From positions 258 through 64,257 of the forward strand of contig CAKOKS010000006.1 in assembly GCA_934095845.1 (NCBI GenBank): a stretch of 64,000 nt of DNA, written 5' to 3'. The position numbers and the translations under genes are program-made. How positions within the stretch are numbered: position 1 is the first letter of the stretch; the number at the start of each line of letters is the position of its first letter. This stretch comes from an uncultured Bacilli bacterium. Lineage in GTDB: Bacteria; Bacillota_I; Bacilli_A; RF39; UBA660. Of the stretch, positions 2,186 through 46,140 are shown piece after piece. The notes below the pieces were generated by a model. The model ran no database searches, was not told the origin of the DNA, and worked only from the letters and a program-made list of their open reading frames with translations.

Positions 2186-3615
2186 TTACTTAAAAAAGTA
2201 AATGTAACTTTAGATAGTAATTTTTTAAAAGTTGCATTTAGTTCTTTAATATTATTTAATTATTCTTATTAATTGTTTTTTTATTAAAAATTGAAAGGAT
2301 GTTTTATATAAAAAAAGAAAGATTAACAATTGAAAACAGAATGTTAATTGAACAACTATTGAAACTAAATTATAAATTAAAAATATTGCTGATGCTTTTG
2401 ATTCAACTTCTTCCACTGTTTCTAAAGAAATTAAAAAAAGAAGAATTTGCAATAAAGGTAATCTTAAAGAATGTGACAAATTAAAAAGATTTCCTTATGT
2501 GTTTTCATGTTGCAGTCTTAAAATAAATTGCCATAAAAAGAAATACTATTATAATTATAAAAAAGCACAAGAAAATTATGATTATCTATTACATTATTCT
2601 AGGAAAGGAATTGATATGTCTATTGATGAAATAGAATATTGGAATGATTATTTAACTGACAAATTAAAAAATAAAAATCAACCAATTTTACATTTATACA
2701 ATACTATAGAAAAAGAATTTCCAAAATCTATTCAAACATTTTATAACTATGTTCATGGAGGTTATTTTTCAAACATAAATGATGAAATGTTACCTAGATC
2801 TTATAGTTATAAACCTAGAAAAAGAAAAAATGAAGCTCCAACTATAAGATATGATAATCCGGCAAGAAAAGGTCGTACATTAAAAGAATTAAATGAATAT
2901 TTAGCTATAAATCCAAATGCAAATATAGTTGAAATGGATACTGTTATTGGAAAATTTGAAGACAAGAAATGTATACTAACTTTATATTTTAGAAATAGTA
3001 AACTAATGCTGATGTTTCTTATAAACAAGTACAAAACCTCAGAAGTTAAAAGAATTTTTAATTATCTGAGAAAAAAATTAGGTACAAAAAAATACAAAGA
3101 ATTATTTGAAATTATTCTTACTGATAATGGCTGGGAATTCTCTAAACCACTAGATATAGAAATTGATCCTATTACAGGTGAAAAAATAATAAATGTATTT
3201 TATTGTGAACCATACTCTTCATGGCAAAAAGGTGGTATAGAAAGAAATCATGAATTTATAAGATATATAATTCCAAAAGGCATTACTTTTGATAATTTAA
3301 ATAATGAAAATATTATAAATATGATGAATAATATAAATAATGTCAAAAGAAAAAGTATGGAGAGAAAATTTCCAAAACTCTTCATCTTCATCATATTGAT
3401 GAAGAAGACGTTGATTTAAGTTATAAAATACTTAAATAATCAACAGATTGAAAATAACAAAACAATTGATATTTCAAAACTAATAACTTACATTTAATTT
3501 TTGAAATTATCTTCAAAATACTTTTTCGAATGCATTAATTTCCTTTTTCGATTACTATTTTATCTAAATTTACAAAAAATGCAAGTATAAAACTTGCATT
3601 TACTTCTTAAAGTAA
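2186..3615 (+). mobile_element. Degraded IS30-family insertion sequence (about 1.43 kb).
   Basis: Imperfect terminal inverted repeats TTACTTAAAAAAGTAAATGTAACTTT (2186-2211) and the reverse complement of 3589-3615 (TTACTTTAAGAAGTAAATGCAAGTTTT) flank a frameshifted IS30-type transposase. Confidence 0.6.
2299..3439 (+). pseudogene. IS30-family DDE transposase carrying at least three frameshifts.
   Basis: The N-terminal HTH part (2299-2484) shifts frame near 2370-2380, and again near 2495-2505 (RFPYVC / CC..C motif split). The catalytic part reads DTVIG...TDNGWEF...SSWQKGGIERNHEF. The natural C-terminus (...HIDEEDVDLSYKILK) is in another frame ending with TAA at 3437-3439. Shifts lie near poly-A runs. 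Confidence 0.7.
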
Positions 3616-8415: not shown

Positions 8416-11575
<3,160 letters not shown>

Positions 11576-11590
11576 CTAGTTTAAAAACAT

Positions 11591-11869
11591 TTAATTGTTT
11601 TTAATATGAACTTCCATATCTTTTAATTTAATACATTTAGAATAATCATTTACAAAAATTTTATCACTTTCATTAAATATCAAATAATTATTCTCTTTGA
11701 TTGTTATAATATGTGGACTTACATAAGCAATATTACTTCCTTTAATATTGATAATACTTCCTTGTTTAATAGTATATTTACAGCAAGCAAATCTACATAT
11801 CATATCAATTCTTTTTAAAACTTCCTTTTCAACTTCTAATATTTTTACTTCCTTCATAAAACTCCTCAC
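11591..11869 (-). CDS. Small conserved IME protein (92 aa). A recombination directionality or regulatory role is only a guess.
   Basis: Paralogous to 58095-58376 and in the same position, between the recombinase and the tRNA. Confidence 0.5.
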   Translation of the reverse strand: MRSFMKEVKILEVEKEVLKRIDMICRFACCKYTIKQGSIINIKGSNIAYVSPHIITIKENNYLIFNESDKIFVNDYSKCIKLKDMEVHIKNN

Positions 11870-11924
11870 TTTCCTTATAATAACAAAAAAACTAGACGGT
11901 ACTTCTAGTTAATATTTATTACTA

Positions 11925-11960
11925 CTCGAAAAGTTCGAGTTTCCTATCAATCTGGTGCCC
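11925..11960 (-). repeat. att-like site (tRNA-proximal junction of IME-A).
   Basis: Hairpin CTCGAAAAGTTCGAG, spacer TTTCCTATCAATC, then TGGTGCCC, which is the 3' end of tRNA-Leu. Confidence 0.5.
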
Positions 11961-12039
11961 ATGGTCGGACTCGAACCGACACGATATTGCTATCATTGGA
12001 TTTTGAGTCCAACGTGTCTACCAATTCCACCACATAGGC
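11953..12039 (-). tRNA. tRNA-Leu (anticodon CAA).
   Basis: Hand-folded cloverleaf: acceptor GCCTATG/CATGGGC, anticodon arm TTGGA-CTCAAAA-TCCAA, long variable arm, T-arm GTCGG-TTCGAGT-CCGAC, encoded CCA. Confidence 0.85.
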
Positions 12040-25515: not shown

Positions 25516-25705
25516 AAAAAAAAGGTGATACCAAAGGACGATTATATATCGTGGTACCACCTTAATTAATACTCATAAGACTTTAAAGGGTCAATCCTGA
25601 CACATCCAAAAACAAGTTCATAAGCTCTTATTGTTTATTTACACCAACCATAAACTCTCTTTAAATAAGTTAACTTATTACTACTTTTTCTTCATCTGCT
25701 TAAGT
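25516..25705 (-). promoter_or_regulatory. T-box leader (Leu specifier CUU proposed) with an intrinsic terminator.
   Basis: The minus strand shows AGATGAAGAAAAAGTAGTA (GA/K-turn region), AGAGAG...GGTTGGTG, GAGCTTATGAAC (a CTT followed by A), the T-box sequence AATTAAGGTGGTACCACGA, and a terminator followed by T8. Confidence 0.7.
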
Positions 25706-25743
25706 GTATTATACAAAAAAGATATTTAAATGTAAATATCTTT

Positions 25744-26238: not shown

Positions 26239-26367
26239 TCTTTACCTCTCTTTACTTTCTATACTCAAAGTATATCACAAATTTCATTTATAATATTTAT
26301 TTTTTTACTTATAATTTGTAAATTTTTGTAAACTAAAAAGATAGATTAACTATCTTTAAGTTGTCTA

Positions 26368-30449: not shown

Positions 30450-31034
30450 CTATTTTACTCCTTTATAAAATTCTTCCATACTTGGTAATGATTCATATAT
30501 TTCTTCTTTACAATATTTGTACTTCTTATTTTCTTTCTTTGTACATTCATTTAAACTTGCATAATTATTTATTACTGGAAGTGTTACTGTTAAGCTTCTT
30601 GCTGAATCATTCTTACACTTTCCATTTTTACTTATTATATTTATTGTATATTTTATTATATCTTTACTATATATTGTTTCATAACTTGCTTTTTTATCTT
30701 CTACTTCTAACATCTTTGTTTCTTTTGTATAGTCATTATATATTTCTACTCGATAATCTTCTTTTATATTACTTAAATTTATCTTAAATACTTTATCTAC
30801 TACATCTTTTCCTGTTGTTTCATCATATCCAACTATTTTGTCTATTTTTTCATATTTTATTTTTACTTTTTTTGCTCCTCTTTTTGCCTTACTTTGAGCT
30901 AATGTTCCACATTTACTTACATTAAAGTCTAATTTTTCTGCTTTCGTTGGATAGGCATACTTTTCTCTTCCTATTACAAATATACCTATTACTACACACA
31001 AAAAAACTGCGACACACACACCTATTTTTCTCAT
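30450..31034 (-). CDS. Membrane-anchored hypothetical protein (194 aa), first gene of the P3 operon.
   Basis: AGAGGAG lies 9 nt before the ATG at 31034. The ORF-track start at 31061 lies a few nt after the -10 and is unlikely. The stop is 2 nt before the P3 start. Confidence 0.55.
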   Translation of the reverse strand: MRKIGVCVAVFLCVVIGIFVIGREKYAYPTKAEKLDFNVSKCGTLAQSKAKRGAKKVKIKYEKIDKIVGYDETTGKDVVDKVFKINLSNIKEDYRVEIYNDYTKETKMLEVEDKKASYETIYSKDIIKYTINIISKNGKCKNDSARSLTVTLPVINNYASLNECTKKENKKYKYCKEEIYESLPSMEEFYKGVK

Positions 31035-31065
31035 CGTTAATATCTCCTCTATTTTTTTCATTTTT

Positions 31066-31093
31066 AGTATATAATACCCCCCCCGATTGTCAA
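31066..31093 (-). promoter_or_regulatory. Sigma-A-type promoter with a G8 tract in the spacer (locus 1).
   Basis: The minus strand reads TTGACA-ATC-GGGGGGGG-TATTA-TATACT. C8 on the plus strand is at 31077-31084, and the spacer is 16 nt at G8. A block of about 60 bp is identical to 36714-36771. Confidence 0.6.
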
Positions 31094-31236
31094 ATTTTTC
31101 TGTTGAAAACTTATAATATTTTTACATCACTTTTACAGAGGGTGTATATATACATTAACAAAATAAAATAAATAAAAAATTAAAAGTATATGCAAAACAA
31201 ATTGCAAATCTTTAGGTTTCGTGTTATATTTTATTT

Positions 31237-31304
31237 AGTGAGAAGCAAAGTTTCTTTACCACCGTTGTTGGTGCACCTTTTTCAAAAGAAAAGGTGCTTT
31301 TTTA
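31237..31304 (+). ncRNA. Candidate small antisense RNA (about 68 nt).
   Basis: Promoter TTGCAA (31202-31207), 17 nt spacer, TATATT (31225-31230). Canonical terminator: stem 31273-31281/31289-31297, then T6. Convergent with the small toxin-like ORF. Confidence 0.4.
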
Positions 31305-31312
31305 TTTTGCTC

Positions 31313-31405
31313 TTATCTACTTTTATATAAAAGCAGAAGTAAAATAAAAATAATAATGAAAAGGGTAACAATTAAAACATCTGTTTTAAATGATTTCTTA
31401 AACAT
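31313..31405 (-). CDS. 30 aa hydrophobic peptide MFKKSFKTDVLIVTLFIIIFILLLLLYKSR; type I toxin-like candidate.
   Basis: Not in the ORF track because it is too short. AGGGAAG lies about 9 nt upstream. A consensus promoter TTGACA (31520-31525) -16- TATAAT (31498-31503) is on the minus strand. Confidence 0.35.
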   Translation of the reverse strand: MFKKSFKTDVLIVTLFIIIFILLLLLYKSR

Positions 31406-31604
31406 TATAAATCACTTCCCTACTACAGCCTTTGCTGAAATTTACGTCCTACATATAAGAAAGTGATAAGCATCTTTTCTTTGCTTCTCGAATGGTTATT
31501 ATAAAGACTAAAATACGTATGTCAATAGACTCGACAAATGTCGACAAAATTAGAACCTAAAAATTTAATACAAACAAAAAACAGGCAATTTTATTGCCTA
31601 TTTT

Positions 31605-44493: not shown

Positions 44494-46140
44494 TTAGAAT
44501 ATTTCTTTTAATTCTTTTTTAATATCATTAACTACTTTTATTAAATCAGGATTATACTTTTTACTTTCAGTTACTAATATATTTTTTATAGCTACATTAA
44601 ACGATTTAGATAAAGCATATTGATAAATTCTCACAGCAACATTTGTTATTTGAGCTTCTATCGGTATAGATTCTCCACTTATAGAATTTGGATAACCTGT
44701 ACCATTAAAGTTTTCAAAACTATATTTAATTATATTATTAGCAACTAAAAGTGTACCTTCGTCTTTAATATAATTTTTTAATAGTATTTCACCATATTCT
44801 ATTTCTTCTTTTATAGCATCACTTGTAATAACTGAATCTTTAGATAAAGCAATTGAACCTACATTATAAAGTGCACATGTATTTACAATTTTATCAATGT
44901 ATTTAGCTTCTAAATTATATTTAGGATAGTTATTTGCAAGTGTTAAAGAAATAAGTCTAACTATTTTCTTTAAAGTATTTGATTCTTTAGAAGTTTCAAT
45001 ATTATTAATTATTTTATTTATTATTATTTCTAATGATTTATTATCATTTGCAGTTTTTAATTCTTCATTTTGAACATCAACTATATTTTGTAAGTTATTA
45101 CTCGATTGATATAGTTTAATAATTTTACCAAATCTTCTTCTTATATTTTCTGTATTAAATGGTTTTTCTAACATATCAACAATTTCATATTGATATACTC
45201 TTTTTCTTGTTTCTCTTGATTCATCTCCACTTATAATAGCAACAGGGATTCTTGAAAATAAATCATTTGAACGCATAAAGTTAAGAACTTCAAATCCATC
45301 TGATTCTGGCATTATTAAATCTAAAAGCATACCTACAATGTTTTCTTTAGAGCCATTTAAATCGTTTGATAAAACATTTTCAGTAATTATATTTATTGCT
45401 TCTTCTCCATTTTTAGCAACTAATATTTCATATTCATTTGAAAATATTCTTTTTAAAGAGTTTCTTATAATTGATGAATCATCTACAATTAAAATAGAAG
45501 GTTTTTTATAACTACTAGAAAGTGCCATTTTATTAAGAATAGCTTTATTTAATTCAGGATGTTCTTCAGTAACTTTATTAAATACTGAATTAATATATTG
45601 TCTTGTTTCTTGATTACTATTCGAGTTTTCAAGTGCATGATTAATTAAATAAATGGCATCACTTATACTTTTATTTTCTTTATCAAGTTTTTTCTTATAA
45701 TCAACTACTTCAGTTTCTAGTTTGTCATTTTCACTTTCGATATCTGTTAAACGATTACTAATATCTTCACTCATCATGAAAATCATTTTTTTATTTTCAA
45801 ATGGTAAATAATTAATAATATTTACAAACCATTTATATTCTCCAGTTTCACAAAGTTTACGATATTTTACTTTAGTTTCACTGTTACCTCTTTCTCTTTC
45901 ATTTTCAAGTTTATTAATAGATAATGCATCAAAGTAAGCATTTAAATCACTTGCTGCTACAAATCTTTTAGCCATTTCAATAAAGTTCATATATGAAAGA
46001 GTTTCTTTAATTACTAAACTATTACTAACAGTAAATTCAAATTTATATACTTTATCTCCAGGTATATCAATTGCATATATATTTGAGTAATTTGCATTGA
46101 TAATTCTAGATACTTGTTCAATTAATCCCATTTCATTCAT
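44494..46140 (-). CDS. Response-regulator receiver domain protein with a degenerate HD-GYP-like C-terminal domain.
   Basis: REC domain: ILIVDDSSIIRNSL...LLDLIMPESDG. In the C-terminal domain GTGYP is retained, but the HD position reads ALYNVGS. Confidence 0.6.
   Translation of the reverse strand: MNEMGLIEQVSRIINANYSNIYAIDIPGDKVYKFEFTVSNSLVIKETLSYMNFIEMAKRFVAASDLNAYFDALSINKLENERERGNSETKVKYRKLCETGEYKWFVNIINYLPFENKKMIFMMSEDISNRLTDIESENDKLETEVVDYKKKLDKENKSISDAIYLINHALENSNSNQETRQYINSVFNKVTEEHPELNKAILNKMALSSSYKKPSILIVDDSSIIRNSLKRIFSNEYEILVAKNGEEAINIITENVLSNDLNGSKENIVGMLLDLIMPESDGFEVLNFMRSNDLFSRIPVAIISGDESRETRKRVYQYEIVDMLEKPFNTENIRRRFGKIIKLYQSSNNLQNIVDVQNEELKTANDNKSLEIIINKIINNIETSKESNTLKKIVRLISLTLANNYPKYNLEAKYIDKIVNTCALYNVGSIALSKDSVITSDAIKEEIEYGEILLKNYIKDEGTLLVANNIIKYSFENFNGTGYPNSISGESIPIEAQITNVAVRIYQYALSKSFNVAIKNILVTESKKYNPDLIKVVNDIKKELKEIF

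Follow-up and report, generated by a model that had tools for sequence, protein, structure and literature searches.

In Neisseria meningitidis, slippage in the poly-G spacer tract of porA and in the poly-C tract of opc leads to graded or on/off expression of outer-surface proteins (summarised in PMC7864442). Repeats also lie in or beside the promoter spacer in Mycoplasma hyorhinis vlp (poly-A), Haemophilus influenzae hifA/B ((TA)n) and Bordetella fim (poly-C), and in these surface-protein families each copy switches independently, which results in combinatorial surface variation. At classical contingency loci, tract lengths differ widely among strains, and a homopolymer of 8 stands at the low end for hypermutability. 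To our knowledge, promoter slippage switches have been described almost only in pathogens. Gut commensals, as far as is known, vary their surfaces mostly by inverting DNA.

In Treponema pallidum, tp0126, which encodes an OmpW homologue, has a poly-G tract between its −35 and −10 elements. Transcription is optimal at a spacing of 17 bp, and within an isolate most molecules have one tract length, with minorities that differ by 1 (PMC7864442). Two other reports describe a poly-T ‘rheostat’ at sabA of Helicobacter pylori, a slippage tract that tunes adhesin expression (PMC4081817), and a G-tract slippage switch of a pilus in the gut commensal Bifidobacterium breve (PMC9187656).

Here we analyse a G8 tract in the spacer of a predicted promoter, found in a 64-kb stretch of DNA (the whole of which is called the window below) from an uncultured gut Bacilli lineage, together with its counterparts in related contigs, designated by L numbers.

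Results

The predicted promoter is read from the minus strand as TTGACA-ATC-G8-TATTA-TATACT. Its −35 hexamer TTGACA (31088–31093) and its −10 hexamer TATACT (31066–31071) are separated by a spacer of 16 nt containing the homopolymer (31077–31084, C8 on the plus strand), and a consensus promoter scan gave it a score of 11/12. Coordinates and scan agree with the original prediction, which had described this same layout and spacer length. The element is placed 25 nt upstream of a ribosome-binding site and ATG, the former (AGAGGAG, 31044–31050, minus strand) standing 9 nt before the ATG at 31034. The homopolymer is situated between −35 and −10, as in promoters of the spacer-length type. An extended −10 was looked for in the two copies of this promoter that the window contains: both read TATTA-TATACT, without TG at −15/−14.

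Hexamers alone are no proof of a promoter in this window, because promoter-like matches are not enriched in AT-rich DNA: 49 promoter-like hexamer pairs were found, versus 55 expected from shuffles. The significance of the first copy rests on the G8 tract and on its conservation elsewhere. At a GC content of 25%, the window has just two G/C runs of 6 or more, both C8 on the plus strand (31077–31084 and 36740–36747). For runs of 8 or more, 0.019 per window are expected by chance, against the two found, both in identical context. The first tract had been taken as the only long G/C homopolymer of the window, a statement that has to be amended, as the second, identical G8 lies within a 90-nt repeat of the promoter cassette. 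A chance occurrence or an assembly artefact, to which the hexamer counts by themselves would lend some colour, is extremely improbable in view of the run counts and of the same tract being present in dozens of assemblies made independently, by different projects and with different assemblers.

The second core promoter (36729–36756, minus strand, with its G8 at 36740–36747) is identical to the first. It precedes a monocistronic 423-aa N-module/DUF6273 gene (35426–36697, minus strand, Pfam assignment), which encodes a paralogous surface protein and is followed by a terminator. Around the two cores, the promoter/5′UTR cassettes (31025–31114, minus strand, and 36688–36777) form a direct repeat of 90 nt with 91% identity (repeat family D11).

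The first copy precedes a 194-aa gene (30450–31034, minus strand) whose product has one N-terminal hydrophobic segment and matched no family in a Pfam search. For this protein 57 homologues were found, at 63–96% identity, and each of their genes is directly followed by a giant adhesin-like gene. In the window the latter is P3 (26368–30447, minus strand), which encodes a 1359-aa adhesin-like protein with an N-module, Listeria-Bacteroides repeats and two DUF6273 domains (Pfam). The P3 ATG, preceded by a ribosome-binding site, is 2 nt past the stop codon of the 194-aa gene. The original prediction had placed the 194-aa gene, P3 and probably also P2, a 164-aa gene, under the G8 promoter. Co-transcription of the first two is supported by the 2-nt gap, the ribosome-binding site, and the conservation of the gene pair in all related loci. 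P2 is probably a separate unit, because P3 is followed by a weak terminator-like hairpin with a T-run (26337–26357, minus strand, −9 kcal/mol, z −2.7 by folding), the probable end of the operon, and because P2 has its own extended −10 promoter, TGaTATACT. Of the five N-module genes in the window, two are under AT-rich, tract-less promoters. The predicted fold of the N-module is a helix followed by an Ig-like sandwich of a generic kind, for which no informative PDB relative was found.

Directly downstream of P2, a leucyl-tRNA synthetase gene is preceded by a T-box leader (25531–25704, minus strand, 99.9 bits), which has its own promoter, TTTACA-17-TATAAT, at 25736–25708. The operon of the 194-aa and giant-adhesin genes is found in at least three genomic neighbourhoods (after rplQ, after dUTPase, and in a pilus-like cluster). 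In some relatives (L015 13956–16260; L032 1–1164) it is adjoined by T2SSE, T2SSF and prepilin peptidase A24 genes, a cluster of the type IV pilus or T2SS-like kind.

Recurrence of the promoter was followed in two samples. A DNA pattern scan, in which only the flanks were fixed and any 3–15 bases were permitted at the tract position, matched three copies in a MAG from Hadza gut, named ‘uncultured Bacilli bacterium’, and also had matches in ‘uncultured Tenericutes bacterium UMGS1611’ and several gut metagenome contigs. The second, less biased sample consisted of contigs encoding homologues of the 194-aa protein and of the N-module. With the two samples pooled, at least 24 distinct contexts of the core promoter were obtained from related uncultured gut Bacilli, in several MAGs and metagenomes. 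Four pattern matches with non-G spacers (L004, L005, L008 and L013) were discarded as unrelated chance matches. A phage origin was also rejected, neither promoter pattern occurring in viral contigs.

Over the 24 contexts, the −35 hexamer is TTGACA or TTGAAA and the −10 hexamer TATACT or TAAAAT. The three bases before the tract are ATC or TTC, and the five after it TATTA, TAATA, TGTTA or TATGA, while beyond the core the context types are unrelated in sequence. No interruption of the tract occurs in these pattern-matched contexts (24/24 intact), a set outside of which interrupted versions fall, and in 20 of the contexts the length is G8 or G9. In the related loci that were checked for G/C runs of 7 or more, every such run was within this promoter. 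The tract itself would then be under selection, because it is pure across diverged promoters although a neutral G8 should erode under AT-biased mutation at 25% GC. The genes downstream in the relatives all encode signal-peptide or surface proteins (N-module, TasA-like and other secreted proteins), with Ig-like modules, Flg_new, DUF6273 or TasA-like N-termini among their further features, or are targets of a diversity-generating retroelement (DGR). Both the purity of the tract and the class of gene it precedes are those of slippage promoters.

A fixed cis-regulatory element offers another way to read this conservation. The G8 and its neighbours, (A/T)TC and TATTA, would form a signal of set length, carried by sequence or shape, which marks a surface-protein regulon and is recognised by a dedicated factor or acts directly on RNA polymerase, through the rigidity of the spacer or its sensitivity to supercoiling. 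Confinement of the promoter class to one functional class of genes suits such a signal, as do the conserved ATC/TTC and T(A/G)(T/A)TA beside the Gs within unrelated outer flanks, and the lack of a tract in other strong promoters of the window, such as TTGACA-16-TATAAT at 31525–31498. Against it, no candidate binding factor is known, the tract is without palindromic or repeat structure, and the promoter has no consistent link to any regulator gene.

Two types of loci in the relatives have additional elements around the G8 promoter. In L054 (10001–12894; also in L055–L063), a 283–289-aa N-module gene under this promoter is part of a diversity-generating retroelement. Two sets of 283–289-aa N-module genes are followed by bAvd and a reverse transcriptase. 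Between the variable repeat at the 3′ end of the gene (L054 10713–10865) and the intergenic template repeat (11059–11211), template adenines account for 19 of the 22 mismatches, which is the signature of such retroelements. In another metagenome lineage (L012 10124–10340 and 11652–11865; also L002 and L007), a terminator hairpin directly abuts the G8 promoter. The latter is followed by an A-rich leader of about 75 nt with a terminator-like hairpin at its end, and then by a second promoter, TTGCAC-17-TATAAT, ahead of a secreted-protein gene. In loci of this type, the product of the G8 promoter may be a short RNA or an attenuated leader.

Tract lengths were counted in 53 related contigs in which both flanks of the tract are read. 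They were G8 in 46/53, G9 in 3/53, G7 in 3/53 and G6 in 1/53, the G6 call and two of the G7 calls coming from contigs at 2–5x coverage. G7 is present at three independent loci (L009, L023 and L049), of which L009 is the orthologous locus of the second window copy, in a strain 97.3% identical in polA. G9, which brings the spacer to the 17 bp that had been predicted for such an allele, is found in L029–L031, three samples of one strain lineage. L029 and the G8 contig L028 encode the same protein and are 98.5% identical, and the tract is their sole indel in 1.8 kb. At two loci in different hosts, all contigs had G8 (19/19, made up of 9/9 at one locus and 10/10 at the DGR-target locus), and these include strains 95–100% identical to each other. 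The set from the DGR-target locus includes strains that are just 95–97% identical and differ by many other indels. The length spread among strains and among paralogous copies is therefore far narrower than in classical loci.

The phase variation proposed for this tract in the original prediction receives divided support from these counts. Natural G9, G7 and G6 alleles exist, and one G7 is at an orthologous locus (L009); on the other hand, G8 predominates strongly, and the nearest orthologues of the first copy are tract-less (see below). A length invariant across strains had been named as an outcome that would speak against switching, and the lengths recorded here come close to it. This near-invariance is what a fixed element would predict, the rare G7, G9 and G6 alleles being then ordinary, mildly deleterious slippage mutations with no adaptive switch. 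Such an element does not by itself explain the use of a mutation-prone homopolymer, G9 is the consensus in three samples, and orthologous genes function under tract-less promoters. We regard it as a serious rival, though of lower probability than the switch.

Contig ends were considered as a sign of length heterogeneity, Logan contigs of tract-bearing promoters starting at the tract or no more than 4 nt from it in 8/8 cases. This sign was rejected: the breaks are attributed to the multi-copy nature of the cassette, because L020, a contig with a tract-less paralogue, also ends in the shared 5′UTR. A search of the 64-kb window for mutS and mutL returned neither gene.

The closest orthologues of the first copy, L034 (95.5% identical) and L035 (syntenic upstream), read TTGACA-ATTGGGTGAAGAAAAATA-TATACT, with an 18-nt spacer and no tract. 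In L018–L022 the promoters read TTTATA-N17-TATACT, with TG at −15/−14. Judging from these cores, the tract is dispensable, in that predicted tract-less promoters drive orthologous genes in close relatives. The copies with TATGA after the tract, a change of T to G at −14 that creates a TGn extended −10, have either a G7 (L023 and L049, that is, two of the three G7 copies) or an interrupted tract (L011 at 11752–11780, and L045/46). TGn was confined to relatives in which the tract is short, interrupted or missing. The tract is intact in 0/5 contexts with TGn and in 20/23 without it (Fisher p = 6e-4, for contexts that are phylogenetically non-independent). The −35 element and the length of the spacer matter little to extended −10 promoters, and the pattern therefore fits a function of the tract tied to the −35/−10 spacing. 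It appears from these sequences that an incorrect spacing is compensated, or tolerated, only once the promoter is no longer −35-dependent.

Promoter cores also move between loci. L045 and L049 are 99.84% identical over 11.4 kb, and at least 6 of their 17 differences, together with their sole indel, fall within one promoter core. The core concerned is that of a 503-aa N-module gene, which reads TTGATAATTAGTGGAAG in L045 (about 3480–3545) and TTGACAATC-GGGGGGG in L049 (195–271). By its clustering, this difference is a short gene-conversion patch, in which a tract-less core would have been swapped for a G-tract core. The same comparison led us to discard the idea that the tract at this gene had decayed step by step. 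Because the differences cluster in one core, promoter cores are exchanged by conversion. The first copy of the window looks recombined in, or imported, because L035, its closest syntenic orthologue, carries another core at this position, one without a tract, while the two cassettes of the window are 91% identical.

These exchanges raise the question of whether the tract is a neutral passenger, without function of its own, in a short cassette that spreads by recombination or gene conversion among paralogous surface-protein genes, so that its apparent conservation reflects recent copying. The similarity of the two window cassettes next to the deviating core of L035, the patch in L045/L049, and the repeat-mosaic nature of the surface-protein genes themselves all agree with such spreading. 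Yet the tract stays intact beside differing hexamers and flanks, in several species-level lineages, and the erosion expected of a neutral G8 at 25% GC is rare, interrupted versions being found with TGn. Passive copying as the whole explanation is for us quite unlikely.

The only relevant pair of inverted repeats, 52 nt long and 88% complementary (31162–31213 and 36833–36884), TTGCA-rich and with promoter-like sequence inside, flanks a 5.6-kb block containing the 716-aa, 146-aa, signal peptidase I, bPH and 423-aa genes. This pair could be a recombination or inversion site. An invertible promoter was considered and rejected, the pair bracketing the 5.6-kb gene block and neither promoter specifically. 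Inversion would leave both promoters coupled to their genes, because the first copy lies outside the pair and the second one inside, together with its own gene. No alternative orientation of the block was seen in related contigs.

Other features of the window are as follows. Between the two G8 promoters, a c-di-GMP-I riboswitch (34251–34341, minus strand, 62 bits for a gathering score of 35) is located upstream of a 146-aa gene and of the gene for the 716-aa surface protein, which has Ig-like and Listeria-Bacteroides repeat domains. A response regulator with a NosR-family c-di-GMP phosphodiesterase-like C-terminal domain is encoded at 44494–46140. Just upstream of the first copy, both strands of 31230–31530 contain a possible type I toxin-antitoxin-like module. 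The perfect promoter at 31525–31498 (minus strand) precedes a 30-aa hydrophobic ORF, MFKKSFKTDVLIVTLFIIIFILLLLLYKSR (31405–31313), 93% conserved in L003 (1195–1284), and a small convergent transcript is predicted on the plus strand (promoter 31202–31230, terminator 31273–31297). The 5′ part of this small RNA also abuts G8 promoters in L003 and L006. An Rfam search of 31000–31650 yielded no family near threshold. A large serine recombinase (640 aa) and a MobV-family relaxase (413 aa), at 8416–12039 on the minus strand, adjoin a tRNA-Leu(CAA) gene, and this region is probably an integrated mobilisable element.

Discussion

The explanation we favour, at about even chances, is that the G8 tract is a selected, slippage-prone part of the spacer, acting as a low-frequency contingency or ‘volume’ switch of expression in which G8 is strongly favoured. 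The tract would belong to a lineage-specific, sigma-A-type promoter class of these uncultured, 25% GC gut Bacilli, placed before secreted and surface genes: the N-module family, the 194-aa and giant-adhesin operons, and DGR targets. As it makes up half of the 16-bp spacer, RNA polymerase would reach both hexamers only at the right tract length. Replication slippage in a pure G·C homopolymer is expected to gain or lose one base now and then. A G9 allele, with its 17-bp spacer, should still be active or be stronger, whereas a G7 allele, at 15 bp, should be weak or off. A change of length would be heritable and reversible, would alter the expression of the downstream surface protein, and would take place independently at each genomic copy. 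The prevalence of G8 points to a switch of low frequency rather than to a locus of random length.

We prefer the slippage switch because variants of +1 and −1 exist, one of them at an orthologous locus, because the genes are of the class typical for such switches, and because of the extended −10 pattern. A stricter version of the fixed element would see in the poly-G a new promoter-spacer signal of fixed length, recognised by a factor specific to the lineage or by RNA polymerase itself, which defines a co-regulated surface-protein regulon, and in the length variants losses of function, sometimes rescued by an extended −10. It seems to us unlikely.

The uncultured gut Bacilli lineage studied here has many copies of one G-tract promoter before its surface proteins, and a retroelement adds further diversity to some of these proteins. 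If the tract switches, cells could differ from one another in the adhesins they show, each with its own subset, which would bear on colonisation and on the evasion of immunity and phages. Without switching, a conservation as strict as this one points to a promoter signal that has so far gone unrecognised.

Among described systems, T. pallidum resembles the present one in having a homopolymer of about 8 Gs within the promoters of several paralogous surface-protein genes (tp0126 and tprE/G/J/F/I/L). That organism is a spirochaete pathogen with 53% GC, in which poly-G is common, whereas here the GC content is 25% and the two tracts are the sole such runs in the window. Length heterogeneity and its effect on transcription have been measured in T. 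pallidum, and the promoters of the window are known from sequence. Moreover, the whole 28-bp core is here a repeated cassette, whose assembled consensus is almost always G8.

With porA and opc, the common point is a homopolymer between −35 and −10 that sets the spacer length. Their tracts are longer (9–14), widely variable among strains, and present at a single locus of a Gram-negative pathogen, while ours is shorter, occurs in many copies and hardly varies in length. The vlp system is the closest in logic, with a low-GC, Bacilli-related lineage, many paralogous genes and one promoter design. In vlp, hif and fim, the repeated base or unit is another one, lengths vary among strains and clones, and switching is experimentally proven; the host in our case is walled, uncultured and commensal. 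Neither the sabA tract nor that of B. breve is a spacer tract: the former is upstream of −35 and acts through DNA geometry, and the latter is in coding sequence and acts by frameshift. The promoter described here thus joins the known spacer-repeat class, in which it is unusual for its multi-copy design, its strong conservation and its commensal host.
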